Source: Nitrososphaerales archaeon (GTDB taxonomy: Archaea > Thermoproteota > Nitrososphaeria > Nitrososphaerales > Gagatemarchaeaceae). Taken from it: a stretch of 59,486 nucleotides of DNA. The notes beneath the pieces were generated by a model. That model ran no database searches. It saw nothing but the letters and a program-made list of their open reading frames with translations, and was not told where the DNA came from. Below, one piece after another: positions 2,206 through 55,106 of the stretch. Location of the stretch: assembly GCA_035314985.1 (NCBI GenBank), contig DATFYP010000101.1, positions 1 through 59,486 on the forward strand, written 5' to 3'. The translations under genes were made by a program, and so were the position numbers. Numbering within the stretch: position 1 is the first letter of the stretch; every line of letters starts with the position of its first letter.

Positions 2206-5058
2206 GTGTTCCAGCTCTTCTCCCCTCCCCTGGTCAAGGCGCTGAACGAGAAGGGGTTCGCCTCGCCTACGGACCCTCAGATGAAGCTGGTCCCGCTCGT
2301 GATTCAAGGGAAGAACTCCCTGCTAATGGCCCCGACGGGGACCGGAAAGACCGAGGCGGCCCTGCTCCCGATCCTCGACAGGATGGTCAGGGAGGGGCTC
2401 TCAAGAGAGAAGGGGACGAAACTCCTGTACATCACGCCGCTCAGGGCGCTGAACCGGGACATGCTCGAGAGGATGCAGTGGTGGTGCAAGAGGTTCGACA
2501 TCAGGCTCGGGGTCAGGCACGGCGACAGCACCCAGGCGGAGCGCACGAACATGAGTTTCGCCCCTCCCGACATCCTCATCACGACCCCCGAGACCCTGCA
2601 GATCCTGCTGGTAGGGAGGCGGATTCGGCAGAGTCTGTCGAAGCTCAGGTGGGTCGTGGTAGACGAAGTGCACGAACTCGCCGAAGACAAGAGGGGGAGC
2701 CAGCTGAGCGTGGGGCTGGAGCGCCTGAGGGACGCGGTCGGGGGAGAGTTCCAGACGATAGGGCTCTCCGCCACGGTCGGGTCCCCGGAGAGAATCGCTC
2801 AGTTCCTCGTGGGGAGCGGGAGACAGTGCGAGGTGGTGAGGGTCCCGGTGGAGAAAACCCTCTCGCTCAGGGTGATCTCGCCTAAGGCGACCGCCCATGA
2901 CAAGGAATTCGCCGAGGCGATCTACTCGTATCCTGAGGTGGCCGCGAGACTGAGGGTCATCAGGGAGGCGGTCGAGAAGTACAAGTCGGTGCTCATCTTC
3001 ACCAACACGCGGTCGGAGGCCGAGGCCCTGGCCAGCAGGTTCAGGGTCTGGGACCCGGAGTTCCCGATTGGAATTCACCACAGCTCTCTGTCGAAGGCCA
3101 CAAGGGAGGCGGTCGAAAGGAACCTAAAGGACGGGAAGCTCCTCGGGGTCATCTGCACAAGCAGCCTGGAGTTGGGCATCGACATCGGGTTCCTCGAGTA
3201 CGTCATTCAATACAACTCTCCCAGGCAGGTGACACGGCTGATTCAGAGGGTGGGACGGAGCGGGCACAGGGTAGGCGAGGTCTCAAACGGGCTGATCGTG
3301 ACCCAGGACTCAGACGACACGCTCGAGGCGGCAGTCCTGTGCAGGAAGTCGGTGCGCGGCGAGCTCGAGCCCCTGGTTCCCGTTTCATCCCCCTACGACG
3401 TGGCAATCCACCAGGTAGCGGGGCTCCTGATAGAGCAGCCCACCTGGAACTTCGCCGACCTTGCGGCCCTGCTGAGGAGGAGCGACGCGTATTCCGGGAT
3501 GGACGACCTGAGGCTCAGGAGGGTCCTGACCTACATGCGGGAGCGCTATCCGAGGCTGGCCTACTACGGGGAGTCCGACGGCAGGGTCTCACGGGCGCGA
3601 GATGTGAAGCCGCTGTTCCAGTACTACTTTGACAACCTCTCGATGATTCCCGACGAAAAACAGTACCTGGTGATCGAGGGGGAGAACTTCGTCGGTGTCC
3701 TCGACGAGGCGTTCGTGTCCGAATACGGCGAGGTGGGGGTCAAGTTCGTGGAGGCTGGGCGCTGCTGGAAGGTGGAGCAGATCTACGGGAACAAGGTGTA
3801 CGTCAAGGCGGAGGAGGACCCCACAGGCGCAGTCCCGAACTGGGTCGGAGACGAGATCCCGGTTCCGCTCGAAGTCGCAGCGGAGGTCGGTGCGCTGAGG
3901 CGGAAGTACGCCGAGGCCATCGAGAAAGGGAAGGGGGAGGCGTTCCTCGAGGCGACGATTGGGGAGTACCCTCTATCCAAGGAGACGCTGAGGGAGGCGC
4001 TGAAAGAGGTCGCCGAACAGCACGCCGCGAAGCTTCCGATACCTTCGGAGAGGCTCGTCACCGTCGAGAGGTGGGACAGGTACGTCATAATCCAGGCGGC
4101 CTTCGGCCACAAGGTGAACCGTCTACTGGCGAGGGTGCTGGGGCACATGATTTCGGAGAAGATCGGGCTGTCGGTCGCCGTACACCAGGACCCGTACAGG
4201 ATGGTCATAGAGGCGGATGTTGCGCCCTCGGTGGTCGTCTCAATGCTGACGGGCCTGAAGGGAATCGACCTCCGTGCGGCGACAGAGAAGGCGGTTGAGA
4301 GGTCTGGGATATTCAAGCGAAGGCTGATTCACGCGGGGAAGAAGTGCGGCGCGATAGCCAAGGACGCGGACTACGCCAGCGTTTCGATTTCCGGCATTGT
4401 CGAGGCCCTTCGGGACACGCCGGTCTACGACGAGGCCATGGACATGATCTTCCACGATGACCTGGACGTGCCCGGAGCAGCCGCAGTCGTGGAGAGGATC
4501 GCGAAGGGTGAGGTCGAGGTGAAGCTGGTCGATTACGAGGGGCTCTCTCCCATCGCGAGGATCGGGGTCGAAGAGATCAGCAGGAGGGGGGAGATCGTGT
4601 CCCCGGAACGCCTCAGGGCCCTCCTCAGGCAGTCTACGAGCGCGCGAATCCTCGACACGTTCATGGTCGCGGTCTGCACGAATTGCTGGAACTATCTCGA
4701 GTTGAAGCGGGTCGGCGACCTGGAGGGGGTTGAGAAGTGCAGCTTCTGCGGCCATGAGGCCATCGGACTGTCGACCGACTCCTACGAGAACGTCTTCTCT
4801 CTTGCGATGAAGGCCAGGAGCAGGACGGACATCCGCGGGAGGAACCTCAAGCTCGTCGAAGCGGTCAAGAAGTCGGCGGAGATGAGGAAGGAGTACGGGC
4901 ACTCCTTCGACATGCTGATGGCGGGGAGAGGGGTGAGAATCGCGGACGCTGCCAACCTGGCCGCGAAGATGAGGAAGGAAGGGAAAGACGTGATCGACTC
5001 GATAATGGAAGGGGAGCGCGAGGCCCTAAGGAGGCGCTACTTCTTTGGACCCGCGTGA
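2206..5058 (+). CDS. Lhr-type (COG1201) SF2 DEAD/DEAH helicase, paralogue 1, with C-terminal Zn-ribbon
   Basis: 950 aa. Motif I is APTGTGKTEAALLP and motif II is VVDEVHEL, followed by SATVG, TSSLELGIDIG and QRVGRSGHR. The C-terminus carries CTNCWN...CSFCGH. GTG start. Confidence 0.85.
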   Translation: MFQLFSPPLVKALNEKGFASPTDPQMKLVPLVIQGKNSLLMAPTGTGKTEAALLPILDRMVREGLSREKGTKLLYITPLRALNRDMLERMQWWCKRFDIRLGVRHGDSTQAERTNMSFAPPDILITTPETLQILLVGRRIRQSLSKLRWVVVDEVHELAEDKRGSQLSVGLERLRDAVGGEFQTIGLSATVGSPERIAQFLVGSGRQCEVVRVPVEKTLSLRVISPKATAHDKEFAEAIYSYPEVAARLRVIREAVEKYKSVLIFTNTRSEAEALASRFRVWDPEFPIGIHHSSLSKATREAVERNLKDGKLLGVICTSSLELGIDIGFLEYVIQYNSPRQVTRLIQRVGRSGHRVGEVSNGLIVTQDSDDTLEAAVLCRKSVRGELEPLVPVSSPYDVAIHQVAGLLIEQPTWNFADLAALLRRSDAYSGMDDLRLRRVLTYMRERYPRLAYYGESDGRVSRARDVKPLFQYYFDNLSMIPDEKQYLVIEGENFVGVLDEAFVSEYGEVGVKFVEAGRCWKVEQIYGNKVYVKAEEDPTGAVPNWVGDEIPVPLEVAAEVGALRRKYAEAIEKGKGEAFLEATIGEYPLSKETLREALKEVAEQHAAKLPIPSERLVTVERWDRYVIIQAAFGHKVNRLLARVLGHMISEKIGLSVAVHQDPYRMVIEADVAPSVVVSMLTGLKGIDLRAATEKAVERSGIFKRRLIHAGKKCGAIAKDADYASVSISGIVEALRDTPVYDEAMDMIFHDDLDVPGAAAVVERIAKGEVEVKLVDYEGLSPIARIGVEEISRRGEIVSPERLRALLRQSTSARILDTFMVAVCTNCWNYLELKRVGDLEGVEKCSFCGHEAIGLSTDSYENVFSLAMKARSRTDIRGRNLKLVEAVKKSAEMRKEYGHSFDMLMAGRGVRIADAANLAAKMRKEGKDVIDSIMEGEREALRRRYFFGPA

Positions 5059-5583
5059 GAGGATCATGGTCATCAGGGTCTTTTCGTCGACCTCGGCCCT
5101 CGTCCTCCATCCGATGTGAAGCAAGGACCTGTCGTCCTGTTCCAGGTAGCCTCTCTTGACGTAGCGATCCAGGGAGTACTCCACCCTCCACTTCGGGAAC
5201 TTGTCGCGGAGGAAGTGCTCCACCTCTCGGCGGGCCGCCCTTCCCTGCTTCGAGTTGACGAATGCGATGGTGGACGCGAGGACCGCCAGGTCGTCTATCC
5301 TGATTCCCGAAGTCTCAGCCTCGGAAATCGACGGAGGCTCCTTGAACCGAAGGAGGAAGCGCGAGGTGTCGTCCGTGCCGTCGGGGCCCTTGACCTCGAA
5401 GACTTCCATCCCCAGGGGCGAAACGTCCTCGGAGAGCACTTCGACTATCTGTTTGTACTCCCGCCCCAGGTGCCGCTTGAGCTCCCAGCCTTTGACGCCG
5501 GGGTTCCTTCCCCTCTGGAGGACAAGGACCTGGAAGGCCTTCCTCACCTTCCGCTCGAGCAGCGCCTTGTCGGCGGTCTCCAT
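5026..5583 (-). CDS. tandem winged-helix kite-like subunit (ScpB / MAGE-Nse3-like)
   Basis: 185 aa from the internal ATG (METADK...), which overlaps the upstream stop as ATGA. There are two WH-like repeats. The C-terminal YVKRGYLEQ...HIGWRTRAEVDEKTLMTMI resembles the MAGE homology domain tail. Confidence 0.6.
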   Translation of the reverse strand: METADKALLERKVRKAFQVLVLQRGRNPGVKGWELKRHLGREYKQIVEVLSEDVSPLGMEVFEVKGPDGTDDTSRFLLRFKEPPSISEAETSGIRIDDLAVLASTIAFVNSKQGRAARREVEHFLRDKFPKWRVEYSLDRYVKRGYLEQDDRSLLHIGWRTRAEVDEKTLMTMILSRGSKEVAPP

Positions 5584-6248
5584 CAAGCTCCCTCCGACAC
5601 CGAGATAGCGACCGATTTTGGCACTCCGCCAACCTTCTCCCTGAGCGCCATGGTCCACACCTTCCCAGTTAGCGGGTCGGTCCTCAGAGACGCCTGGCCG
5701 TCGCTGATTAGGAATGAGAGGAGATAGGCCCGGACGACCTTAGCCGCGAAGCTGTCAGCCTTGATGAACTCCCCGTAGTCGATCCAGTCCCCGTTCGACT
5801 TCTGCAGAAGCGCCTCGTGTAGCTCCTTCAGGTCCTTGTCGAACTGCTGGCGCGTGAAAACCCCCAGTTCGATGAGCTCGGCGTAGCCGACGGAGCCTGG
5901 CTTTGTGCCATAGCTCCCGAACTGGTCCTTGAACCGCTCCGCCATCGGCAGCAGGTCCCGCCAGTACACGAAGGCCCTTTCGAGCCCCTTCGGAGAGATC
6001 TGGTCGAGCTGGACGATGGGGTGCCAGCTCTTGACGAACGCCTCGCTCAGCTCGTTCTTGGCGAGGAGCTTGACCTTCAGCTGTATCAGCAGAGGGTCGA
6101 TGTAAAGCGAGGAGGCCCTGTGCTTGAGCCACTCGTCCTGCAGCTTGACTATCTGGGCGAGCTCGAGCATCGCCTCCGAGTCCAGGAGGAGTTCGTCGAG
6201 GAACTTCCACTCCGGAAGGCGCTCCTTCAGCACCCGGATCTTCTCCAC
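5583..6248 (-). CDS. kleisin-like subunit (ScpA/Nse4-like)
   Basis: 221 aa with a GTG start. It has a helical N-terminus and a C-terminal winged-helix-like KVVRAYLLSFLISDGQASLRTDPLTGKVW. It sits between the SMC-like and kite-like genes and is translationally coupled to the downstream gene. The start is uncertain: the ORF stays open in frame up to 6347. Confidence 0.5.
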   Translation of the reverse strand: MEKIRVLKERLPEWKFLDELLLDSEAMLELAQIVKLQDEWLKHRASSLYIDPLLIQLKVKLLAKNELSEAFVKSWHPIVQLDQISPKGLERAFVYWRDLLPMAERFKDQFGSYGTKPGSVGYAELIELGVFTRQQFDKDLKELHEALLQKSNGDWIDYGEFIKADSFAAKVVRAYLLSFLISDGQASLRTDPLTGKVWTMALREKVGGVPKSVAISVSEGA

Positions 6249-8454: not shown

Positions 8455-11298
8455 TTGAGCCCCGGCCATCCGTTCACCTCTCTCACCCCTGCGGTGCGAG
8501 GGTTCCTCGCTGAGTCGGGGATAACCGAGCCGACCCCTCCACAGGTGCAGGCGTGGCCCCTCATCGCCGAGGGGGAGAATGTCCTCATAGTGGCCCCCAC
8601 CGGCTCGGGGAAGACCGAGGCAGCCCTGCTCCCACTCCTCGGGAGAATCGCCGCGGGGGGACACGGGGAGGGGATATCGCTTCTCTACATCACGCCGATG
8701 AGGGCACTCAACCGTGACATGCTGAAGAGGCTCCAGGTCTGGTGCTCCAGGCTAGGGCTCACCGTCGACATCAGACACGGGGACACCCCTCAGAGTCAAC
8801 GCGCAAAGCAGTCCTCTCACCCCCCGGACGTGCTGGTGACCACCCCGGAGACGCTGCAGGCCATCCTCCCCGGGAGCAGGATGAGAGAGAACCTGGGGCA
8901 CCTCAAGGCCGTCGTCGTGGACGAGCTGCACAGCCTAGTCGAGAGCAAGAGGGGAGTGCAGCTCTGCGTCGGCCTGCAGAGGCTCAGACGGGTCGCAGGA
9001 GAGTTCCAACTTGTCGCGCTCTCTGCGACGGTGGGGACCCCCGATGTCGCGGCCCAGTTCCTTTTCGGCGGGAGGAAGCGGACCATAGTAAAGGCCGAGG
9101 CGCCGAAGGAATTCACATACAGCATAGAGTACCCGGTCCCCGACCCAGCAGACCAGACGACAGCCAGAGAGACCTACGCTGCCCCCGACCTCGCGGCGAG
9201 GCTGGCCCGGATCGACAGGCTGATCGAGGAGCACCGGTCGACTTTGATCTTCGTCAACGCGCGGACAGTTGGAGAGATGCTCGGCGAAAAGCTCGCGAGA
9301 CTCCGCAAAGACACCGCCGTTCATCATGGTTCTCTGCCGAGGGAGGAGAGGGAGAGGGTCGAACAGGCGTTCAAGTCGGGGCAGCTGAAGGCGCTCGTGT
9401 GCACGTCCACCCTTGAGCTGGGGATAGATGTCGGGTCGGTGGACCTCGTGGTGCAGTACATGTCCCCCCGACAGGTCACATCGCTGGTGCAGAGGGTCGG
9501 GAGGAGCGGCCATAGCCTGGGGAGGGTGTCGGAGGGAGTCCTGGTCACCGTGTCGGCCGACGACGTCCTCGAATCTTCGTCCAGCATCTTAGAAGCGCGC
9601 CGGGGAAAGATCGAGCCGACCAGGCCATATGTTAACTGCCTCGATGTGCTCGCCCACCAGGTCGCCGGGTACCTGATGGACCGGGAGAGCATCGAAGCGG
9701 GAGACCTGCTTGAGGAGGTGAGAGCTGCCTCGCCGTTCAAGGACCTCTCGGAGGAAGCGTTCTGGAGGACGGTGAAGTACCTGGCCGAGCTGAGGAAGAT
9801 AAGAATAGACGGGACCCGGCTCTCGAGGACGAGGCTGACCAGGGACTACTACTTCGAGAACCTCTCGATGATCCCCGACGAGACGAGGTACCTGGTCGTC
9901 GACGTCACGACCAACCAGTCGGTGGGGATACTCGGGGAGGAGTTCGTCCTTCTGAAGGCGAAGGTGGGGGTCCACTTCATCTGCAAGGGGAAAGTCTGGC
10001 AGATAGAGCAGATAGCCGACGACAGGAAGATCTACGTGACGCCGGCCGACGACCCGCTGGCGGCGCTGGCAACCTGGGACGGGGAGATGCTCCCAATCCC
10101 GTTCGGCCTGGCGCAGATGACGGGGAAGCTGCGCCGGGAGGTGTCCGAGGGGCTCGACAGCGGGGAGGAGGGGCTAGATGCTGTGCTGAAGAGGATCCCG
10201 GGAGACGCGGCCGCGAGAGCGCTGGTCGTGGACCAGATCTCGGAGCACAAGAAGATGGGGGCGGCGGTCCCCTCGGACAAGGTGATCCTATTCGAAGGGT
10301 TCGGGAAGTACCTGATCGTCCACCTGTGCTTCGGGGAGTCGGTGAACCGGACCTTCGCCTACGTTTTCGAGGAGATCCTGTCGAGGAGGGGCCTCGTCAG
10401 GGTCTGGTGGCTGGACGGCTACCGCCTCCTGATGGAGCTCACCACAGACACGGAAGAGCTCGACCTCGGCTCGGTGGCAAAGGAGCTGATGGGGCTGCAG
10501 CCGGAGGAGCTCGAAAGGACCTATGCGGTGGCTGCCCAGAGGAACTTCCCGTTCCCTTCACGAGTGAAGCAAGTCGCTGAGAGGTTCGGCGCCCTCAAGA
10601 GGGGGAAGCTGATAGCTCACCCGAACCTCTGCTCGCTCCCCACCCGTTTCGAGAAGACCCCGATATTCGAGGAGGCGCTTCAGGAGACCGGGCGGGACCT
10701 GATCGACATGGCGAGGGCGAAGGAAGTCCTCACGATGGTGGCAGACGGCAGGATCACGGTGGAGACCTACCTGGCGGGGGAGAGGCCGACGCCGATAGCC
10801 TACGCGCTTCTCTACCGGTACCTGGAGGTGCCTGAAGCGGTCGCTCCCGACTCCCTAGGGAGGACCTCCTACCAGCGCATGAAGGCCAGCATCTTCGGGA
10901 CCGAAGTGAGCATGCTGTGCTTCAAGTGCGGTCTCGACCAAGGATACGCCACGGTGGGGGATCTTGCCGAAGAGCCGAGGTGCCGCTCCTGCGGGTCCGG
11001 ACTCCTCGTGCCATGCTACTGGGGGACGGGCAAGGTTGGCGACCTCGTGCGGAGGAAAGCGTCAAAGGAACAGCTCAGCGATGAAGAGAGGGGAGAGCTC
11101 GCGAAGGCGAGGAGGGGTGCCGACCTCGTCCTTTCATACGGGAAGAAGGCCGTGGTCGCCCAGACGGTGTACGGGATAGGACCCCAGACGGCGTCAAGGA
11201 TCCTCGCGGAGATGCGAGATGACGAGGAGGCTTTCTACAGGGACCTCCTCGAGGCGAAGATCAGGTTCGTGACCACCAGACAGTTCTGGTCGAACTGA
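8455..11298 (+). CDS. Lhr-type (COG1201) SF2 helicase, paralogue 2, with C-terminal Zn-ribbon
   Basis: 947 aa with a TTG start. Motifs are APTGSGKTEAALLP, VVDELHSL, SATVG, TSTLELGIDVG and QRVGRSGHS. The C-terminus carries CFKCG...CRSCGS. The architecture matches 2206..5058. Confidence 0.85.
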   Translation: MSPGHPFTSLTPAVRGFLAESGITEPTPPQVQAWPLIAEGENVLIVAPTGSGKTEAALLPLLGRIAAGGHGEGISLLYITPMRALNRDMLKRLQVWCSRLGLTVDIRHGDTPQSQRAKQSSHPPDVLVTTPETLQAILPGSRMRENLGHLKAVVVDELHSLVESKRGVQLCVGLQRLRRVAGEFQLVALSATVGTPDVAAQFLFGGRKRTIVKAEAPKEFTYSIEYPVPDPADQTTARETYAAPDLAARLARIDRLIEEHRSTLIFVNARTVGEMLGEKLARLRKDTAVHHGSLPREERERVEQAFKSGQLKALVCTSTLELGIDVGSVDLVVQYMSPRQVTSLVQRVGRSGHSLGRVSEGVLVTVSADDVLESSSSILEARRGKIEPTRPYVNCLDVLAHQVAGYLMDRESIEAGDLLEEVRAASPFKDLSEEAFWRTVKYLAELRKIRIDGTRLSRTRLTRDYYFENLSMIPDETRYLVVDVTTNQSVGILGEEFVLLKAKVGVHFICKGKVWQIEQIADDRKIYVTPADDPLAALATWDGEMLPIPFGLAQMTGKLRREVSEGLDSGEEGLDAVLKRIPGDAAARALVVDQISEHKKMGAAVPSDKVILFEGFGKYLIVHLCFGESVNRTFAYVFEEILSRRGLVRVWWLDGYRLLMELTTDTEELDLGSVAKELMGLQPEELERTYAVAAQRNFPFPSRVKQVAERFGALKRGKLIAHPNLCSLPTRFEKTPIFEEALQETGRDLIDMARAKEVLTMVADGRITVETYLAGERPTPIAYALLYRYLEVPEAVAPDSLGRTSYQRMKASIFGTEVSMLCFKCGLDQGYATVGDLAEEPRCRSCGSGLLVPCYWGTGKVGDLVRRKASKEQLSDEERGELAKARRGADLVLSYGKKAVVAQTVYGIGPQTASRILAEMRDDEEAFYRDLLEAKIRFVTTRQFWSN

Positions 11299-17805: not shown

Positions 17806-18131
17806 AAGTGGCGGCGGCTCCCCCGGAGTTCACCATCGGTCTCCGCCCCCGTCTCGCCAGACGGAGAATCCCCCACGTAGACGAAGCAGCGTGGCCACGT
17901 CACCATAGGGCTGCTCCCTCCCGGACCTCGCCCGATTCGGCAATTAGTGGTCAGGACCTCTCCTTCGAGAGGACTGCCTCTCATGACCGCCCGCCACGGC
18001 GTGAGTTCGTCTCCTCCGCCCGACGCAGGTTGCGGGGATGGTGGCTTTACCCGAAGGTTGCTGGCCTCTGCATGTTGCCGGTTTCAGCCTATCGGGAGAC
18101 GGCAACCCTCCCTGCCCTACCCGCCGCCAGT
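17806..18131 (-). ncRNA. signal recognition particle RNA (7S RNA), ends +/-5 nt
   Basis: The termini pair (GGCGGCGG with CCGCCGCC). The helix-8 signature GGUCCGGGAGGGAGCAGCC is close to the universal GGUCCGGAAGGAAGCAGCC. A helix-6-like hairpin CUCUC-GAAG-GAGAG is present. The ~326-nt length fits archaeal SRP RNA. An A/T box TTAATTA lies about 25 nt upstream. Confidence 0.85.
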
Positions 18132-35992: not shown

Positions 35993-36301
35993 CTAGAAGC
36001 CAGCCGGAAGGTAGTTGTTCTTGGCCAGGTACTCCTCGTGGGCCTTGATGTAGCGCCAGAGGACGTCGGCCCTTCTGTCGTCGAAGTCCCAGGGGGCAAC
36101 CAAGACGATGTCGTGCTCCCTGATCCAGACCCGTCTTTTCATCTTCCCCCTGATTCTACAGAGTCTGACCTTCCCGTCGGTGCATTTCACAAGCACGTGG
36201 TCCCCGCTGGAGATTTTGTTGACCCTGCCCAGCATTTCGCCCTCCTGAGGCAGGACAAGCTCCTTCAGGTTCGACTCGCTCAGTACCTTACGCTTGCCCA
36301 A
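35993..36301 (-). CDS. eif1a: translation initiation factor aIF-1A
   Basis: LPQEGEMLGRVNKISSGDHVLVKCTDGKVRLCRIRGKMKRRVWIREHDIVLVAPWDF. Confidence 0.9.
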   Translation of the reverse strand: MGKRKVLSESNLKELVLPQEGEMLGRVNKISSGDHVLVKCTDGKVRLCRIRGKMKRRVWIREHDIVLVAPWDFDDRRADVLWRYIKAHEEYLAKNNYLPAGF

Positions 36302-37221: not shown

Positions 37222-37761
37222 CTAGCCGGACATTCCGCGAATGACGAACCTCAAGATGGGGATGCGATTGGCCCTAATGAAACCCAAATCAGATTTGGAA
37301 ATCACTGGCCTGCCATAGTAATTCACTACCGCGAGGGCAAGTATTCGGCCCGGGGACAATTTGCGCCACCTAAGGGCATCTGTCAATTGATCTTCTAGTG
37401 TGTCACCACTCGCACCTTGGAGGCAATGACTGCCGTATGTCTTCACTTCCACAGCCAGGGTTTCGTTAGTGGTGACAATTTCGACCAGCCTGAAACGTCT
37501 CAGGGACGGAAATACATCAAGCCCGAAATCTTCAGCCCTGATGAGCAGGGGGTGGTCTCTGATCTTGTACCCAAGTAACCCAAGCCACCCCTTGACTAGC
37601 CCTTCGCCAAAGGCCCCCCTCACATGCTTGGACGCCGACATGGTAGGATTGCCGACAAAGCTGCCCCGTCTGGAAAGGTCGATTGCCTCGCTTTTGGTTA
37701 TCCTGACGTTTCGGGATTCCATCACGAGTTGGTCGACAACTCCAAATTTTAGCGATTGCAA
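37222..37761 (-). CDS. PD-(D/E)xK-type nuclease-like hypothetical protein (Hjc/YraN-like core)
   Basis: RGAFGEGLVKGWLGLLGYKI ... FGLDVF ... LAVEVKTYG fits a GxxxE...D...E-x-K nuclease core. The gene begins 19 nt after tRNA-Pro, and GC is visibly lower than the flanks. Confidence 0.5.
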   Translation of the reverse strand: MQSLKFGVVDQLVMESRNVRITKSEAIDLSRRGSFVGNPTMSASKHVRGAFGEGLVKGWLGLLGYKIRDHPLLIRAEDFGLDVFPSLRRFRLVEIVTTNETLAVEVKTYGSHCLQGASGDTLEDQLTDALRWRKLSPGRILALAVVNYYGRPVISKSDLGFIRANRIPILRFVIRGMSG

Positions 37762-37988
37762 ATGGGCGAGGTAGAAGATTGGAGGGGCTAGTGAAACTGA
37801 GTTGTCCAGCCGGATGTTGCCGAGCCGTTGATTTCCCTCAATTCAGCGGTCGGCCCGAGTGAACAAAAAGCTTGTGCCATTCTCTCTTCCTCACACCGCG
37901 CAGTTCAGATTCTCAGCGCAACAGAACTTCTTTTGACTAACTGTCCACATAGCTTGATATAGTTTCTAACAGGAAGTCTCCCCCGGAC

Positions 37989-40076
37989 TTGCAAGCCGCT
38001 CCAAGAAGGGTAAAGACGATTTACAGTGTCATCGCGTCCCCGCAGAGGCTGGAGATCCTGAGGATTCTGAACATCAAGGGCCCGCTGACCTACAGCGCGC
38101 TGAAGACCCTCGCGGGTTTCAAGTCGAAGAAGGAGTCGGGGAAGTTCGCCTACCACCTGAGGAAGCTCGTCAAGCAGCTCCTCATCCAGCTGAACCGGCA
38201 GGAGAGGAAGTACACGGTCACGAACCTCGGCAGGCTAGTGCTCAACCTCACCCGCCAGATAGAGGAGCAGTCCCTGGTCGAAAGCGGCAAGCTCTATGTG
38301 AGGACCTCGCACCAGACGATGGAGGAGTTCAACGCGAACAAGATCCTCCAGTCCCTCGTAAAGGAGGCAGGGATGCCGGTTGAGCTTGCGCAGAAGATAA
38401 CCAGCGAAACCGAATCGAGGCTCTACAAGTTCCAGACGCAGTATCTCACGGCCCCCCTGATCCGCGAAATCGTGAATGCCCTCCTGGTGGAGCACAGCCT
38501 TGAGGAGTACCGCCACAAGCTCACCCGCCTGGGGATGCCCATCTACGACGTGACCCAGCTTCTGAGCAGGGCGGGGGACGACGGGGGGAGCGTTGAAACC
38601 CTCATCCACCAGACGGGGAAGCAGGTCTTCTCAGAATACCTTCTGCTGGAACAGCTTCCGAGGGACGTGGCCGACGCCCACCTGTCCGGGGACATCCACA
38701 TAACGAACGCCGGGACCTGGGGGCTCACCCCAGACACCGTCTTCGTGGACCTCCTGTCCATGAGGAGCGCCGGACTGAACCCGAAGGGGAAGATCGTGAA
38801 TGCTTCGATGATACCCAGCCCCGAGAGCGCTGAAAGGGCGCTGAACATCGTCCTCAACATGTCGTCCATGCTCAGCAGGGAGGCCTCCGACGAAGTGACG
38901 TTCAGGAACTTCCTCCAGTACATCGGGCCCTTCTGCAGGTCGAGAGGGAAGCGGGAGCTGGAGAACCTCTTCCTGCGCTTCTTCGAGACGATGAGCACCC
39001 CGATCGTGGGGGCGGGGGCGCCGGCGGTTGGGATCGAGCTGAACCCCTACAAGCACGACGACGTGCCGCGGGAGGTGACTGACAAGATCCTGGACGCTGT
39101 GCTCGGCGCGTACAGGAGCTTCGTGGAGGAGACGCCGAGGCCCGACGTCAAGCTGCTCCTGGCGAAGCCCAACCGGGTCGATGAAACCCAGACGCTGAAG
39201 GCCGCTGCGGGAATCATCTTCAGGGGCGGCCGGATTGCCTTCTTCTCATCCGACCAGCGGCGGAGCTTCCTCGGGCTGAATGCGAACGTGCTGCCCCAGG
39301 AGTTGCAGGCAGACAACGTGAGCGTGCTGCACGGGCTGAGCCTCAACCTTCCCAGGCTCGCCTACGACTCCAACCAGGACGAGACCTACTTCAGGGCGAA
39401 GCTCGCCATGCTGATAGCTGTCGCGGCCGACGCCCTCTCGACGAGGAGGAGGCTGATAGAGAGGACCCTCAAGAGGGGGCTCCTCCCCTCGCTGGCGGGG
39501 GGCTCCGACGCCGTAACGACGGACACGATGCCCCTGGTGATGAACATGGTCGGGCTCGAGGAGACCCTCGCGAGCCTGATCCGCGACCCGACGACGGCCT
39601 CGAGGTACGAACTCGCCGACAAGATAGTCCAGACGGCCAGCCAGGTGGCCCTGGACAAGTCCACGAAGAGCGACAAGCTCGCCGTCGCCATGCTGGACCT
39701 CGACGGCGCCATGAGAATGGCGACCCTCGACTCCGAGAAGTACGGGAAGGCCAACATTCAGCCGCTCCAGAAGGGGGCATACAGCCAATCGCCCAGGCTC
39801 GTCCTGTCTGACCTCGAGAACCCCGAGAAGATGGACTATGTCGGCAAGCTGTCGTCAGGCCTCATGGGGGGGCTCTCACTGACCCTCGACGGTTCGGCCG
39901 AGGAGGTCAGGGGAGTCTACAACCTGATCCTCAACGCGACCCCGAAGCTTCCGTGCTTCAAAGTCGACAGGACCATCTCCGTCTGCAGGAACTGTGGGGC
40001 CAAGCTGCCGCAGAAGGCGGTCCGCTGCAACAGGTGCAAGTCCGTGGCCTCGGTCCAGTATTCGACAGCGGTCTGA
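37989..40076 (+). CDS. wHTH (ArsR-like) + ATP-cone + NrdD-like domain protein lacking a glycyl-radical motif
   Basis: The N-terminus SPQRLEILRILNIKGPLTYSAL...FAYHLRKL is a winged HTH. LYVRTSHQTMEEFNANKILQSL...APLIREIVNALL is an ATP-cone. AHLSGDIHITN is an NrdD-type motif. The C-terminus is CRNCG-x11-CNRCK, and the ORF stops 11 codons later with no RVxGY-like motif. TTG start. Confidence 0.65.
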   Translation: MQAAPRRVKTIYSVIASPQRLEILRILNIKGPLTYSALKTLAGFKSKKESGKFAYHLRKLVKQLLIQLNRQERKYTVTNLGRLVLNLTRQIEEQSLVESGKLYVRTSHQTMEEFNANKILQSLVKEAGMPVELAQKITSETESRLYKFQTQYLTAPLIREIVNALLVEHSLEEYRHKLTRLGMPIYDVTQLLSRAGDDGGSVETLIHQTGKQVFSEYLLLEQLPRDVADAHLSGDIHITNAGTWGLTPDTVFVDLLSMRSAGLNPKGKIVNASMIPSPESAERALNIVLNMSSMLSREASDEVTFRNFLQYIGPFCRSRGKRELENLFLRFFETMSTPIVGAGAPAVGIELNPYKHDDVPREVTDKILDAVLGAYRSFVEETPRPDVKLLLAKPNRVDETQTLKAAAGIIFRGGRIAFFSSDQRRSFLGLNANVLPQELQADNVSVLHGLSLNLPRLAYDSNQDETYFRAKLAMLIAVAADALSTRRRLIERTLKRGLLPSLAGGSDAVTTDTMPLVMNMVGLEETLASLIRDPTTASRYELADKIVQTASQVALDKSTKSDKLAVAMLDLDGAMRMATLDSEKYGKANIQPLQKGAYSQSPRLVLSDLENPEKMDYVGKLSSGLMGGLSLTLDGSAEEVRGVYNLILNATPKLPCFKVDRTISVCRNCGAKLPQKAVRCNRCKSVASVQYSTAV

Positions 40077-40229
40077 TCCGAACGAATCGAGTTAACATCC
40101 TGTCAAAAAGAGTTCACAGTGGAACGTTTCATGCTGCTAGCGCCAGAGGGACAAACGCCCCAATTGTCAACTGAGCATTAGCCAAGAGCGAGATATATAT
40201 CGCCGAACATGGGTTCAAGGTTAAGGATT

Positions 40230-42548
40230 ATGACGTCAATCGCTGAGAATCCACGTGACTCTGCGGACGCCGCAGAGCAGACCAAGGGAGAAGTGAAACT
40301 CCCATCCGAGACTCTCGCAGCATTCGGCGGAGATGAACTGCGGGCGAGAGTGTTCTATGAGAAATACGCGCTACGGGACCAGTACGGCAAGCAGGTCGAG
40401 AAGACACCAGAGGAACTGTGGCGGCGGGTCGCCACGGAGCTGGCGTTGCCAGAGCTGGATGCCGAGAAGAGGAAGGAGTGGGCGAGCAAGTTCTACTGGC
40501 TCCTGCAGGACTTCAGGTTCGTGCCGGGGGGAAGAGTCCTCTTCGGCGCAGGGCAGTCAAGGAAGTCGACTCTGCTCAACTGCTACTTCTTCAAGATCAA
40601 GGAGGACTCGATCGAGTCGATCTTCGACTGGTGCAAGGAGGCCGCCAGGACCTACAGCTTCGGCGGAGGCGTCGGGACCGACATCTCCGTGCTGAGGCCC
40701 CGGGGGGCGCCGGTCAACAACGCCGCGATATACAGCTCGGGTTCGGTTTCGTTCATGGAGCTCCTCTCGACCACCACAGGGACCATCGGTCAGGCGGGCA
40801 GGAGGGGGGCGCTGATGATCACGATAAGGGTGGACCATCCGGACATAATGGACTTCATGACAGTCAAGCGCGACCTGAAGAGGGTCAACTACGCCAACAT
40901 CTCAGTGAAGATCACGGACGACTTCATGAAGGCCGTCGAGACCGACGCGGACTTCTTCCTGCACTTCAAGAACGAGAAGGTGGAGGTGAACAGAACGGTG
41001 AGGGCGAGGGAGGTGTGGAAGTCGCTTGTCAGGGGGGCCTGGGAGTCTGCAGAGCCCGGGGTCCTGTTCTGGGACACCATCAAGAGAGACTCCACCACCG
41101 AGTACAACGGCATGGAGGTGGAGGGGGTGAATCCCTGCAGCGAGCAGACTCTGGAGAGCTACGGCTGCTGCTGCCTCGGCTCGATCAACCTCAGCGCCTT
41201 TGTGAAGGAGCCATTCACGGAGCGGGCGAGCATCGACGAGGAGGCTCTCACCAGGGCGTGCCAGTTCGCCGTCAGGTTCCTCGACAACGTCCTCGACTAC
41301 AACGCCGAGAGGCACCCGCTCCCCCAGCAGAAGAAGGCCTCGCTCTGGAGCAGGAGGATAGGCACGGGGATCACCGGCCTGGGGGACATGCTGATCAAGC
41401 TCGGGCTGAAGTACGACGACGAATCCACCATCGAGTACGTCGACCACCTCTTCGAGAGGATCAAGAACGTCATCTACGAGTGCTCGACGGACCTGGCGAA
41501 GGAGAAGGGGAGCTTCCCCGCCTTCGACGCAGAGAAGCACCTGGCCCAGCCCTTCATCCAGAGGCTGGGGGACCGGGTGAAGGAGAAGATCAGGACCCAG
41601 GGGCTCAGGAACGCGGCGGTCACGACCATCCCGCCCGTCGGCTCGGGATCGATCCTGGCCGGATGCTCGAGCGGGGTCGAGCCGGTGTTTGCCCTCTATT
41701 ACACCAGGAGGAGCAAGTCGCTCAGCGAAGGCGAGTTCAAGGTCTTCCACCCCCTGGTGAAGGAGTACATGGCCCTCAGCGGGTCGGCGGACGAGGGGAA
41801 GCTGCCGAACTACTTCGTCACGTCGCACCAGATAAGGCCCGAGATGAGGGTGAGCATGCAGGCGACCATCCAGAAGCACATCGACACGGCGATCTCCAGC
41901 ACAGTCAACCTCCCCGAGGAGATAACGCTGGACGAGGTCGAGAACGTCTACATGCTGGCCTGGAAGCTGGGATGCAAGGGCATAACGGTGTACAGGGAAG
42001 GGAGCAGAGAGGGCATCCTGGAGACGGAGAAGGCCCCCAAGAAGGAGGAGAAGGAGGAAGAGCAGAGGATCACCTTCGAGCGGCCGAGGCTGATGGAAGG
42101 GAAGACCCTCAAGCTGAAGCTTCCCCAGGGGGCGCTCTACCTCACGGCTAACCTGGTCGACGGAGAGCTGAAGGAGGCATTCGTGACCCTCGGCAAGTCG
42201 GGAGGGGACGAGAAGGCCGACGCCGAGGCCCTCGGGAGGCTGATCAGCCTCTACCTGCAGCACGGAGGGGACGTCCAGAGCGTCGTGTCTACGCTGAAGG
42301 GCATCAAGGGGAAGTACGTCTCCTGGGACGAGGGGACGCAGCTGCTCTCGATTCCCGACGCGATAGCGAAGGCGCTGGAGCTGCTGACCCTCAACCACGT
42401 CGTGAAGGAGTCGGCCATCCCCCTGCAGGCCGAAGGGTCCAGGATGCGCCCGATCGGGACCACCTGCCCCGACTGCCACGAAGACGCGCTGGTCTTCGAG
42501 AACGGGTGCTACCGCTGCAGCAGCTGCGGATACTCCAAATGTGAGTAG
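40230..42548 (+). CDS. nrdJ: class II (adenosylcobalamin-dependent) ribonucleotide reductase
   Basis: FVPGGRVLFGAG, LLNCYF, SFGGGVGTDISVLRPRGAPV, NPCSEQTLESYGCCCLGSINL and the C-terminal CPDC...CSSCG. The start is set at the second ATG (MTSIAEN) because the ATATATAT box sits at 40193-40200. The ORF opens at 40209. Confidence 0.9.
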   Translation: MTSIAENPRDSADAAEQTKGEVKLPSETLAAFGGDELRARVFYEKYALRDQYGKQVEKTPEELWRRVATELALPELDAEKRKEWASKFYWLLQDFRFVPGGRVLFGAGQSRKSTLLNCYFFKIKEDSIESIFDWCKEAARTYSFGGGVGTDISVLRPRGAPVNNAAIYSSGSVSFMELLSTTTGTIGQAGRRGALMITIRVDHPDIMDFMTVKRDLKRVNYANISVKITDDFMKAVETDADFFLHFKNEKVEVNRTVRAREVWKSLVRGAWESAEPGVLFWDTIKRDSTTEYNGMEVEGVNPCSEQTLESYGCCCLGSINLSAFVKEPFTERASIDEEALTRACQFAVRFLDNVLDYNAERHPLPQQKKASLWSRRIGTGITGLGDMLIKLGLKYDDESTIEYVDHLFERIKNVIYECSTDLAKEKGSFPAFDAEKHLAQPFIQRLGDRVKEKIRTQGLRNAAVTTIPPVGSGSILAGCSSGVEPVFALYYTRRSKSLSEGEFKVFHPLVKEYMALSGSADEGKLPNYFVTSHQIRPEMRVSMQATIQKHIDTAISSTVNLPEEITLDEVENVYMLAWKLGCKGITVYREGSREGILETEKAPKKEEKEEEQRITFERPRLMEGKTLKLKLPQGALYLTANLVDGELKEAFVTLGKSGGDEKADAEALGRLISLYLQHGGDVQSVVSTLKGIKGKYVSWDEGTQLLSIPDAIAKALELLTLNHVVKESAIPLQAEGSRMRPIGTTCPDCHEDALVFENGCYRCSSCGYSKCE

Positions 42549-42848: not shown

Positions 42849-42975
42849 CCTTCGCGAGGGCATCTGACTTGGCCCTGGCGACCTTGGCCCTCAGCTCTCC
42901 CACCGCCTGCTGGTGAGCCTCCTCCACCTTCTGAGAGGCCGACCTGAAGGGTTCGGCGGCTATGTCGGCGCTCAT
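42838..42975 (-). CDS. 45-aa helical mini-protein coupled to atpD (candidate small ATPase subunit)
   Basis: It falls below the ORF-track cutoff. ATG 42975 overlaps the atpD stop (ATGA). The sequence MSADIAAEPFRSASQKVEEAHQQAVGELRAKVARAKSDALAKVKA is predicted to be a single amphipathic helix. Confidence 0.45.
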   Translation of the reverse strand: MSADIAAEPFRSASQKVEEAHQQAVGELRAKVARAKSDALAKVKA

Positions 42976-43613
42976 TGTGCCGCCCTCCTCTCAAGGACCC
43001 TCTTTACATGCTTTAGCCTGGTGAACTCCTCCCTCTCCCTCTCCTCGAGGGTCTGCTGGATGAAGCGGATAGAGGTCTCGTAGCGGGGGATGATCATGAA
43101 TTCGAGCGCGTTCAGGAGCCGCTGGGTTCTCTCGAGCTCCTTCGCCAGTCTGAAGATCGCGTTCTCGTATTCTGCGGCCTTGAAGATCGAAGGGAGGACC
43201 CGCCTCATCTGCATCGAAGCCCTGTCGACGGCGACGTTGGTGTCGGCGAACCCGTAGGTCATGCCCACCTCCTTCTCTGAGAGCGTGACTGATGGGATGT
43301 CCACGTCGACGATTCTGCGGACTTTGACCTCCGCCTCCGTCCCGGGGGGGGTGTTGGCCGCGATTCCCTCCAGACGCAGGGGTCCCAGCTTCAGGTAGGC
43401 GTCATAGAGCGCGAGGTAGGCGTCGGAAAGGGGCTGCGATATCTCGTCACGGGCCGTCCCCGCCTGCACTATCATCTCGTCCAGGCGCTTGAGGAGGACG
43501 TCGCGCTTGTCGTCCAGCACCTTCTTCACTCGTCTCGCCGTCCCAAGCCTCTTCCTGGTCCCGATCAGCTCGATCTTTGTAGGAAGGACCCCGGAACCGG
43601 AAGCTACCGACAC
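42972..43613 (-). CDS. atpD: A/V-type ATP synthase subunit D
   Basis: LPTKIELIGTRKRLGTARRVKKVLDDKRDVLL. The start is set at the GTG 1 nt after the atpB stop, giving 213 aa. The longer ORF overlaps atpB. Confidence 0.85.
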   Translation of the reverse strand: MSVASGSGVLPTKIELIGTRKRLGTARRVKKVLDDKRDVLLKRLDEMIVQAGTARDEISQPLSDAYLALYDAYLKLGPLRLEGIAANTPPGTEAEVKVRRIVDVDIPSVTLSEKEVGMTYGFADTNVAVDRASMQMRRVLPSIFKAAEYENAIFRLAKELERTQRLLNALEFMIIPRYETSIRFIQQTLEEREREEFTRLKHVKRVLERRAAQ

Positions 43614-43614
43614 T

Positions 43615-45027
43615 TCAACCAGCCGGCTCTTTTGCCACGTAGTGTTTCTTGATGAACTCTTCCTTGATGTTGGTGAGCTCGTTCTTGGGGAGGATCGAGA
43701 GCGTCTCCCAGCCAATCCTGAGAGTTTCCTCGAAGGTCCTGTTCTCGTCGTACCCCTGGTTCAGGTACTTCTGTTCGAACTCGTCCCCGAATGTGAGGTA
43801 GCTCAGGTCCGACCCCGTCAGCCCCGACTTCCCCACGATCTCCGCCAGCGCCCTCAGCTCGACCGCCCTGGCGTAGGCGTTGTAGAGCTGGTTGCCGACC
43901 TGGTGGTGGTCCGGGCGAGCCTTCCCCTGCTTGATGACGTAGCCGAGGGCGGGGCCCATCAGCCTGCTAAGGCTTGAGAGGACGTAGACCGGGGGATACA
44001 GCCCCTTCCTGAAGAGCTCCCGTCCGAGGAACACCTGGCCCTCGGTGATGTAACCCGTGAGGTCCGGAATCGGATGGGTAACGTCGTCGCTGGGCATAGA
44101 CAGGATGGGCATCTGGGTGATGCTTCCCTTCTTTCCCTTGATTCTCCCGGCGCGCTCGTAGAGGCTGGCAAGGTCCGTGTAGAGGTAGCCGGGAAAGCCC
44201 TTCCGCCCCGGGACCTCCTCCCTTGCGGCCGATATCTCCCTCAGCGCTTCGGCATAGTTCGTGATGTCGGTGATTATCACGAGGACGTGCATGTCCAGCT
44301 CGAAGGCGAGGTACTCCGCGGCGGTGAGTGCGACGCGGGGGGTGATTATCCTCTCGATTGCCGGGTCGTCGGCGAGGTTGAGGTACAGGATGCTCCTCCT
44401 GATGGCCCCAGACTCGGCAAGGGTCCGCTGGAAGAAGGTGGCCTCACTGGAAGAGACCCCTACGGCGGCGAACACGACCGCGAACTCCTCGCCCCCCCCA
44501 ACGACCGTCGCCTGTCTCGCGACCTGGGCGGCGAGCATGTTGTGGGGCATCCCCGCCCCTGAGAAGATCGGGAGCTTCTGGCCCCTCACGAGGGTGAGCA
44601 TTCCGTCGATGACGGACACTCCGGTCTGGATCAGGTCGGTTGGGTAGTCCCTTCGCTCGGGATTGATGGGCGCGCCGTTCACGTCGGGGAAGCTCTTGGC
44701 CACCGGCTCCGGCAGCCCGTCTAGAGGCCTGCCCAGCCCGTCGAAGACCCTTCCGAGAAGCTGGTCTGAGACCGGGAGCTGCATCGTCCTGCCCAGGAAC
44801 CTGGCCTTGGTGCCGCTGATGGAGAGCCCCGATGTCCCCTCGAAGACCTGGACCACCGCCTTCCCGAACCCCGTCTCGAGGACCCTCGCTAGCCTCTTCC
44901 TCCCCTCGGCGTCCTCGATCTCCACGAGCTCGTCGAAGGCCGCCCTGTCCACGCCGTCGACCACCAGGAGCGGGCCCCTGATCTCGGCCACCTTGCTGTA
45001 CTCCAGGCCGGATGAGGACTTGCTCAA
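43615..45027 (-). CDS. atpB: A/V-type ATP synthase subunit B
   Basis: 470 aa. [48 protein letters not shown] and [17 protein letters not shown]. Confidence 0.95.
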
Positions 45028-54807: not shown

Positions 54808-55106
54808 AAGACGCGAGTCGGTGGACGGGCCACGGGGACCTCCTGGGGAAGTTCCTCCCTCACGGCAGGACGCGCGGCGCCACGAGGCGCAGCCGGAGAC
54901 GGCTGGCTCCAGAACAGAAACGACACCCGCCCCATCAAGGGCGATGATAGGGAAACCTTGAGGTCGGTGGGGAGCGGGATGAAACGGCTGACCCGCGCGG
55001 AGCAAGGCCGAACGTGGTCGATGATAGGCCTGCGGGAGACCAAGGTGGGCCGCTTAGCTGAATCCCGTCTAGAACAGGAGGAGGACTACGGCCGAATACG
55101 CGTCAG
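54808..55106 (+). ncRNA. rnpB: RNase P RNA (type A-like), ends +/-5 nt
   Basis: P1 is GACGCG/CGCGTC. The CR-I-like segment GGGGAAGTTCCTCC pairs with the 3' ACAGGAGGAGGACT as P4. AGAACAGAAACG, GGGATGAAACGG and CGGAGCAAGGCCGAA (compare E. coli CGGAGCAAGGCCAAA) are also present. An A/T box gttattt lies about 25 nt upstream. Confidence 0.75.

Follow-up and report, generated by a model that had tools for sequence, protein, structure and literature searches.

In a stretch of 59,486 nucleotides (positions 1 to 59,486 of contig DATFYP010000101.1 of a Nitrososphaerales archaeon, hereafter called the window), the open reading frame (ORF) at 37989-40076 on the forward strand encodes a protein of 695 residues in which a winged helix-turn-helix (wHTH) domain and an ATP-cone are joined to the body of a class III ribonucleotide reductase (RNR), NrdD, devoid of its catalytic residues. 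This protein, here called the regulator, is probably a transcription factor dedicated to RNR genes that also controls its own gene and descends from a dead class III enzyme; that it binds DNA, what it senses and in which direction it acts are inferences. The transcription-factor role is proposed because the order of the regulator gene and of nrdJ, the gene for a class II RNR, is held at 82 of 85 loci, because the wHTH is nearly invariant, and because a palindrome common to the promoters of both genes keeps a fixed position in relatives.

The regulator gene starts with TTG and stops with TGA at 40074-40076, and the start position is the same among relatives, with TTG, ATG or GTG as the codon; the gene is defined by the ORF list, by Pfam and by more than 100 homologues. 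At its N-terminus, residues 11-85 (38019-38243, +) match the Pfam winged HTH family DUF7347 (38.3 bits, cut-off 27.6). The ArsR-type family HTH_20 reaches 24.7 bits, slightly under its cut-off of 27, and the ArsR-type model NF033788 gives a weak match, while the corresponding domains of relatives attain the cut-offs of both HTH_20 and HTH_5. In the AlphaFold2 model this domain has the topology H-H-H-H-beta-beta, with GKFAYHLRKL in the recognition-helix region. Since residues 1-315 hold no cysteine, the wHTH is without a metal-binding Cys/His site of the ArsR/SmtB type. Next comes the ATP-cone (residues 103-174, 38295-38510, +; 30.3 bits, cut-off 25.8), a divergent variant modelled as a beta-hairpin (E103-105, E111-113) followed by four helices. 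The NrdD-like barrel body (residues 201-689, 38589-40055, +) matches the Pfam family NRDD with 101.4 bits over profile positions 8-533 of 562, the remaining 30 or so positions (534-562), which correspond to the glycyl-radical loop, being without a match. The NCBIfam equivalog model for NrdD, TIGR02487, gives 80.5 bits, and its cut-off of 326.35 is not passed. Within the body, the motif DAHLSGDIHITN occupies residues 229-240, and close to the C-terminus a Zn ribbon of the NrdD type (C666-x2-C669-x10-C680-x2-C683; 39984-40037, +) aligns with the ribbons of real NrdDs, its four cysteines being invariant in a 52-sequence alignment of the superfamily.

A preliminary description of this DNA, made from the sequence alone, had already proposed the three-part make-up of wHTH, ATP-cone and NrdD body, which is supported here by Pfam and by the AlphaFold2 fold, and had pointed out the NrdD-type motif, found as given above. 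The C-terminal CxxC ribbon that it noted is present as well, although with a spacing of x10 instead of x11, and the count of 11 residues between ribbon and stop has to be corrected, as 12 follow C683. NCBIfam holds no model for the combination of wHTH, cone and dead NrdD, and in public records the family goes by 'anaerobic ribonucleoside-triphosphate reductase' in some cases and by 'ArsR family transcriptional regulator' in others. The first of these names, which is often used, could wrongly imply anaerobic deoxyribonucleotide synthesis in metabolic reconstructions.

The fold of a class III RNR has been kept, as seen in an AlphaFold2 model built on the 52-sequence alignment (mean pLDDT 89.5, pTM 0.81): the top 36 PDB matches found with Foldseek belong without exception to class III RNRs (T. 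maritima, S. thermophilus, P. copri and phage T4), and the match to the T. maritima enzyme (4COJ) has an E-value of 9.3e-21 and TM-scores of 0.58/0.67. The catalytic residues were located by MAFFT alignment with two bona fide Bathyarchaeial NrdDs and also by hidden Markov model (HMM) alignment to the NrdD of phage T4; in the reference Bathyarchaeial NrdD, the glycyl motif reads RVTGY, the finger loop holds 'QCC', and 'PFC' is present as well. In the alignment with the two archaeal enzymes (A4), the window protein ends one residue short of the radical Gly: its tail QYSTAV (40056-40073, +), of which QYST is kept in the clade, is a remnant of the sequence preceding that residue in NrdD, Q-Y-S-T-A-V being aligned with (H/W)-W-S-R-V-T of the real enzymes ('WSRVTGYY'), and the stop replaces the radical Gly itself. 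The finger loop 'TQCCRF' has become 'FLGLNA', the thiyl Cys (T4 Cys290) being replaced by Leu430 in the MAFFT alignment or by Arg424 in the HMM alignment. This loss does not depend on the choice of alignment, because no cysteine is found between residues 317 and 655, the only ones in the protein being 316, 656 and the four ribbon positions. The second active-site Cys (T4 Cys79, 'PFC' in archaeal NrdD) is Thr250, in 'PDT'. Judging from these residues, the window protein cannot be an RNR, because the radical Gly and both active-site cysteines are gone.

No credible ORF in the window carries the radical-SAM motif CxxxCxxC, whose sole match lies in an overlapping alternative-frame ORF, and no activase-like Pfam family occurs among the genes called over some 22 kb around the locus. 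As neither the Gly that would take up the radical nor the thiyl Cys is present, an nrdG gene elsewhere in the genome would make no difference to this conclusion. The preliminary description had stated that an RVxGY-type loop was missing and that no NrdG activase gene was near, and had suggested that the protein is a catalytically dead class III scaffold. All three points agree with the present results, the second within the window and in terms of activase families and radical-SAM motifs. The NrdD alignment and the AlphaFold/Foldseek comparison that it suggested have thus returned catalytic Cys and Gly positions that are all replaced or missing, in a protein with the fold of a class III RNR.

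The possibility that the protein is still an enzyme, acting as an RNR or as another radical enzyme through unconventional residues, draws on the finding that PFL-type aminoacyl radical enzymes may use Ala, Ser or Thr in place of Gly (PMC11528403), so that the loss of Gly alone is no proof that an enzyme is inactive. In some Bathyarchaeial members of the family, the Gly is indeed replaced by Ala or Ser, and the finger-loop Cys survives in a few members. However, a rescue of that kind concerns PFL-type enzymes and is inapplicable where the chain stops before the radical position is reached; the window protein is also without the thiyl and the second Cys, and no activase is encoded in its neighbourhood. 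Moreover, the body evolves much faster than the wHTH, one of the lineages carrying the regulator encodes a cytochrome oxidase next to it, and the genera of ammonia-oxidising archaea, among which the family is widespread, are aerobes. Continued catalysis is therefore regarded as highly improbable. The disagreement between public annotations might also be taken as the sign of a decaying pseudogene or of a gene-calling artefact such as a frameshifted nrdD, an explanation to which we give next to no credence. The ORF is intact, its N-terminus is almost invariant among relatives, and more than 100 homologues (64-96% identity) share both the length of about 695 residues and the ...QYSTAx end. As the other two frames past the stop encode nothing similar to NrdD, a frameshifted or truncated nrdD was ruled out, including the frameshift near 40070 that had been named in the preliminary description as a way in which its reading could fail.

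The regulator gene is followed on the same strand, after a gap of 132 nucleotides, by nrdJ (40209-42548, +), as had been described before. Its product is a class II, adenosylcobalamin-dependent RNR that scores 545 bits with TIGR02504 (cut-off 400) and is made up of the Pfam domains Ribonuc_red_lgN/lgC and TSCPD, with no ATP-cone. In Nitrososphaeria the next gene downstream, in the same orientation, encodes a NrdJ homologue at all but three of the 85 loci, and in those three the contig ends at the gene or little sequence remains beyond it. This order holds while the identity of NrdJ drops to about 30-31% across the loci and while the other neighbouring genes differ from locus to locus; in Nitrosopumilus, the downstream neighbour is likewise a NrdJ (TIGR02504, 712 bits). 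In Bathyarchaeia a longer and less decayed regulator precedes a real nrdD at two of three loci, and the Bathyarchaeial neighbour that was scored reaches 487 bits with TIGR02487. The presence of either nrdJ or nrdD beside the regulator therefore indicates an association with RNR function and not with one class of RNR. At one of the Bathyarchaeial loci (L087), a small glutaredoxin-like gene (10571-10882) stands between the regulator and the real nrdD, which suggests that the enzyme there belongs to a redoxin-dependent NrdD subclass.

Two further observations concern nrdJ itself. The listed start is 40209, and the only start conserved across 20 or more relatives is the ATG at 40230 (GTTATGAC; GTTATGACGTC), about 35 nucleotides past the centre of the nrdJ TATA box (40192-40200). 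Because only this second ATG is conserved, the true start is probably 40230, which would give a protein of 772 residues and a very short leader. In some close relatives, the nrdJ match extends over about 3.3 kb instead of 2.3 kb (L015, 8249-11581; L020, 3514-6864; L017, from about 3080). In L017 the sequence past the catalytic 'GVNPC' runs on as VTGDTPVMTPEGW..., an insert that the window nrdJ does not have, and these long genes look as if they held an intein at the active-site cysteine of NrdJ.

The evidence for DNA targets comes from the two intergenic regions that flank the regulator gene. A scan of the whole window for the palindrome TTGAC-N5-GTCAA with at most one mismatch gave two matches, at 37933-37947 and 40092-40106, for 1.1 expected by chance; the number is not unusual by itself, whereas the placement of both in short intergenic regions on either side of the gene is. 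The first operator candidate, TTGACTAACTGTCCA (37933-37947, +; one mismatch), ends 7 nucleotides upstream of the TATA box of the regulator gene, TTGATATAG (37955-37963, +), as read from the sequence. The start codon is only 26 nucleotides downstream of this box, and for this reason the mRNA of the regulator is probably leaderless. Among 29 close relatives, in which TTGATATA or TTAAATA is kept at about -33, 15 have a TTGAC half-site at -56 to -52 from the start codon and 19 have one immediately 3' of the TATA box (-24 to -20), against a background frequency for TTGAC of 0.00077 per nucleotide.

The second operator candidate, TTAACATCCTGTCAA (40092-40106, +; one mismatch), lies 16 nucleotides past the regulator stop and about 97 nucleotides upstream of the nrdJ TATA box. 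In relatives, the palindrome occurs 20 times in the 20 kb that follow the stops and 24 times in the 931 kb elsewhere, an enrichment of about 38-fold, and 15 of the 20 post-stop palindromes are at +15 to +17, a 16th being at +23. When 22 nrdJ upstream regions were aligned (A3), a fixed order of elements emerged: a GTCAA invariant in all 22 loci, a T..AC 6 nucleotides further on, a CGTCTCAT block, and a GT(C/T)AAC 20 nucleotides before the TATA box. In the window, these correspond to the second palindrome, to a third half-site TTCAC (40113-40117, +), 6 nucleotides past GTCAA, which is TTGAC in some relatives and whose T, A and C are invariant, to the block CGTTTCATG (40125-40133, +), to a fourth half-site GTCAAC (40166-40171, +), 20 nucleotides upstream of the nrdJ TATA box, and to that box, GATATATAT (40192-40200, +), whose TATA is invariant. 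Moreover, the hexamers TGTCAA, GTCAAA and AGTCAA are 8-9 fold enriched in the intergenic regions between regulator and nrdJ, and in Nitrosopumilaceae the arrangement GTCAAC-AAAA-TTGAC is retained ahead of the nrdJ TATA box. When the promoter of a regulator and that of the adjacent target gene have a motif in common, this usually marks a local transcription factor that controls its own gene as well.

A structured RNA or riboswitch in the 132-nucleotide spacer was considered and rejected, as RNAalifold finds no pairs in the 22 aligned loci; the conserved blocks of the spacer are therefore DNA elements. At gathering threshold, the Rfam matches in the window are RNase P RNA and signal recognition particle (SRP) RNA, with none at the spacer or at the CGTCTCAT block. 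This block, with consensus CGTCTCAT(G/T) between the palindrome and the nrdJ TATA box, is also kept in relatives at about 48% identity, where it appears as TCTCATTGAC (spacers of L033-L036), and it could serve a second promoter further upstream, as its initiator, or else be the site of another factor. In Nitrosopumilaceae, the spacer is far longer, with about 0.7-1 kb before the NrdJ match (L053-L085; for example L054, 8052-9001), its GATC hexamers (CGATCA, GATCGA, GATCTA) are 5-8 fold enriched and GGGGAG is conserved immediately before the nrdJ start codon, features which point to possible additional or different control elements.

The distribution of sequence conservation along the protein is also what would be expected of a regulator. 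In the clade of the window protein (12 sequences, down to 64% identity), pairs of sequences are on average 96.6% identical in the wHTH, 90.6% in the ATP-cone with the linker and 62.6% in the body, so that selection is strongest on the N-terminal parts that a regulator would use. The cone itself departs from the canonical type, since V-R-T-S takes the place of V-x-K-R, the Lys-Arg pair of VxKRDG being changed to T-S. VRTS is kept across the superfamily, with Arg105 invariant. The same VRTS is found in the real NrdD adjoining one of the Bathyarchaeial regulators, the other real NrdD having VRRSDG. A profile of the cone alone gave no match to PDB sequences at E<=1. Because of this divergence, the sensing of ATP or dATP is proposed by analogy with NrdR, the bacterial RNR repressor.

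That the window NrdJ has no ATP-cone of its own, and that barrel and Zn ribbon are kept at full size, would also suit a non-catalytic paralogue that binds NrdJ (or NrdD in Bathyarchaeia) and lends it ATP-cone-type activity control, instead of or besides binding DNA. The regulation of active paralogues by pseudoenzymes is a known pattern. Nevertheless, a protein partner of this kind seems improbable: no part of the regulator is better conserved than the wHTH, and the palindromic sites are conserved as well. In addition, the NrdJ of Nitrosopumilaceae has its own canonical ATP-cone (VKKRDG), yet the regulator is kept there, and thus it is not merely compensating for a cone-less NrdJ. Furthermore, the dimer interfaces of NrdJ and NrdD differ (PMC9531940), which makes one binding surface for both enzymes unlikely.

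The regulator with a dead NrdD is a large archaeal family and not a local oddity. In an exhaustive search with HMMER, 1104 cluster representatives matched at E<=1e-3, 212 of them at E<1e-30, and most of the best 150 begin with the wHTH. In a scan of one genome per GTDB species, the family was found in at least 598 species; the best 80 matches are all from Nitrososphaeria and include Nitrosopumilus, Nitrosotalea, Nitrosotenuis, Nitrosopelagicus, Nitrososphaera and Gagatemarchaeum, as well as many Nitrososphaerales. Three types of C-terminus can be distinguished. The first, that of the window, belongs to proteins of about 695 residues that end soon after the Zn ribbon; the second, with about 740-780 residues and Bathyarchaeia as its named members, has a complete but degenerate glycyl-radical tail (for example ...FSRISAKYLPVSHW...RVSY), in which Gly has changed to Ala or Ser; the third, with about 540-650 residues and one named member from Aigarchaeota, is without the Zn ribbon. 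The Pfam NRDD score drops stepwise, from 481 bits in a real NrdD to 301 in a Bathyarchaeial regulator, 101 in the window protein, 94 in the Nitrosopumilus type and 44 in the Aigarchaeal protein, while VRTS..EEF[ND]..K, DAHLSGxIHI and INLPRLA persist as motifs throughout the superfamily. Intermediate stages of the decay are thus preserved in living lineages, the Gly being changed with the tail kept in Bathyarchaeia, the tail truncated in Nitrososphaeria, and the Zn ribbon lost in Aigarchaeota and in a lineage whose protein has 653 residues.

Taken together, these data allow a mechanism to be proposed for the autoregulated transcription factor. The regulator would dimerize through an NrdD-type interface, placing its two wHTH domains on the TTGAC/GTCAA half-sites. 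At its own promoter, where the sites flank the TATA box, binding would hinder TBP, TFB or RNA polymerase and lead to autorepression. At nrdJ, binding to the array of half-sites that extends from 20 to 100 nucleotides before the TATA box would control RNR transcription. In archaea, the former position resembles that of a repressor, and the latter that of an activator, or else it may reflect a higher-order assembly; as the nrdJ sites lie upstream of the TATA box, the direction of nrdJ regulation cannot be called. The signal would be the nucleotide pool, sensed by the nearly invariant ATP-cone and possibly by the remains of the barrel, and passed on as a change of DNA-binding geometry or of oligomeric state, in the manner in which bacterial NrdR responds to ATP/dATP. 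The preliminary description had likewise suggested a dNTP/ATP-sensing transcription factor for the cobalamin RNR, analogous to NrdR, and each part of that reading which could be examined by computation was supported.

Several points weigh against this scheme. Repression by simple occlusion does not fit the upstream position of the nrdJ sites, and the half-site 3' of the regulator TATA box is degenerate in the window (TTCTAAC). The conserved TTGAC/GTCAA sites could be bound by another factor, and the ligand of so divergent a cone may not be ATP or dATP. Moreover, no RNR gene adjoins the regulator at three loci, one each from Bathyarchaeia, Aigarchaeota and the 653-residue lineage, and in distant loci (Bathyarchaeia, Aigarchaeota and the 653-residue lineage) the TTGAC palindrome is not clear, these lineages having either a different operator or sites elsewhere. 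The absence of an adjoining RNR gene in three distant lineages, together with the shortness of the half-site and the near universality of the family in its class, would also agree with a broader regulator of DNA metabolism or of the cell cycle, acting at many TTGAC-type promoters, of which nrdJ would be one. Such a broader role is considered unlikely, as the full palindrome in the window is confined to the two promoters flanking the gene, it is not enriched in some 930 kb of flanking sequence of relatives, and the gene order with RNR survives a switch of RNR class.

With regard to the origin of the RNR-specific regulator, a copy of nrdD with its own N-terminal ATP-cone would have gained an N-terminal wHTH in an ancestor shared with Bathyarchaeia, and its radical chemistry would have been lost along with the Gly and both active-site cysteines. 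The simplest history, in our view, is one of duplication, fusion and replacement, in which the duplicated nrdD was fused to the wHTH in an anaerobic ancestor and nrdJ later replaced nrdD in aerobic lineages. In general terms, we lean, by a little more than an even chance, towards the view that a functional counterpart of NrdR is common to Nitrososphaeria (every sampled genus of ammonia oxidisers among them), Aigarchaeota and Bathyarchaeia, one in which a complete class III RNR stripped of its radical chemistry and provided with a wHTH became a nucleotide-sensing RNR transcription factor that stayed at the RNR locus through the replacement of nrdD by nrdJ. If this is true, the regulator would be a molecular fossil of anaerobic ancestry in aerobic ammonia oxidisers. 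For the control of RNR genes in archaea, where NrdR is rare (PMC9110341), the family offers a concrete candidate, carried by the ammonia oxidisers of sea and soil, which rank among the most abundant archaea on Earth. A large radical enzyme would here have been turned in its entirety into a sensor, with graded intermediates between enzyme and regulator preserved. No description of the family was found in the literature on RNR families and NrdR, the coverage of which was incomplete, so that an earlier description may exist.

Other genes of the window confirm an archaeal chromosomal context with about 60% G+C: the window contains an archaeal RNase P RNA (185 bits, 54813-55101, +), an archaeal SRP RNA (102 bits, 17812-18126, -), the gene for aIF-1A (35993-36301, -) and an operon for an A/V-type ATPase (about 42972-47800, -). 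Upstream of the regulator, an ORF of 179 residues (37222-37761, -) has no Pfam match. In some relatives (L005, L007, L009, L010 and L013) a sequence resembling the 3' end of a tRNA (GGTTCAAATCCGGGCGACCCCA) lies about 60-110 nucleotides upstream of the regulator start, and in L004 a phage-integrase-like gene (4779-5924) is found upstream of it; in the window, no tRNA is present between 30 and 45 kb. The spot upstream of the regulator may be a variable or integration-prone site.

Among known systems, enzyme-derived transcription factors such as BirA and PutA, in which a metabolic scaffold is combined with a DNA-binding domain, regulate genes of their own pathway and keep their catalytic activity. 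The analogy with the regulator would lie in the fusion of an enzyme scaffold to a DNA-binding domain for the control of its own pathway; in contrast, its enzyme part is dead and its proposed target, NrdJ, is a replacement enzyme of a non-homologous class. With the regulators of the ArsR/SmtB type, it shares a small wHTH of the same Pfam clan (DUF7347, HTH_20, HTH_5) and the expected mode of binding, by dimers at inverted repeats located on or next to core promoter elements, but it has no cysteines in the wHTH and therefore no metal-sensing site, the sensor being a module of 600 residues derived from an RNR.

NrdR, the RNR-specific repressor of bacteria, consists of a Zn ribbon and an ATP-cone and responds to ATP and dATP (PMC9110341, PMC12176259); it is rare in archaea (PMC9110341). 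Both proteins join an ATP-cone to a DNA-binding module and are linked to RNR genes. In both cases, palindromic sites recur in the promoters of RNR genes and, it appears, in that of the factor itself, and sensing of the nucleotide pool is the logic to be expected. However, the DNA-binding domain of NrdR is an N-terminal Zn ribbon, whereas that of the regulator is an N-terminal wHTH without Cys, and the Zn ribbon of the latter is C-terminal and homologous to that of NrdD. NrdR has about 150 residues and the regulator 695, including a whole dead NrdD barrel; its cone is without the canonical K-R pair, and it is archaeal, having arisen independently of NrdR, out of the RNR enzyme itself. With NrdD it is homologous over the ATP-cone, the barrel and the Zn ribbon (Pfam NRDD; Foldseek 4COJ, 9DCA, 8P2C and 1HK8), with DAHLSGxIHI and NLPR as common motifs. 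It differs from NrdD in its extra wHTH, in the absence of the radical Gly, the thiyl Cys and the second Cys, and in its occurrence in lineages whose RNR is the class II NrdJ, ammonia-oxidising archaea included. Thus, the regulator is not a NrdD, because those three catalytic residues are missing and its score lies below the curated cut-off, nor is it a NrdR, because it is without the Zn-ribbon DNA-binding domain; it is a member of neither family, and the closest system is NrdR in function and NrdD in descent.

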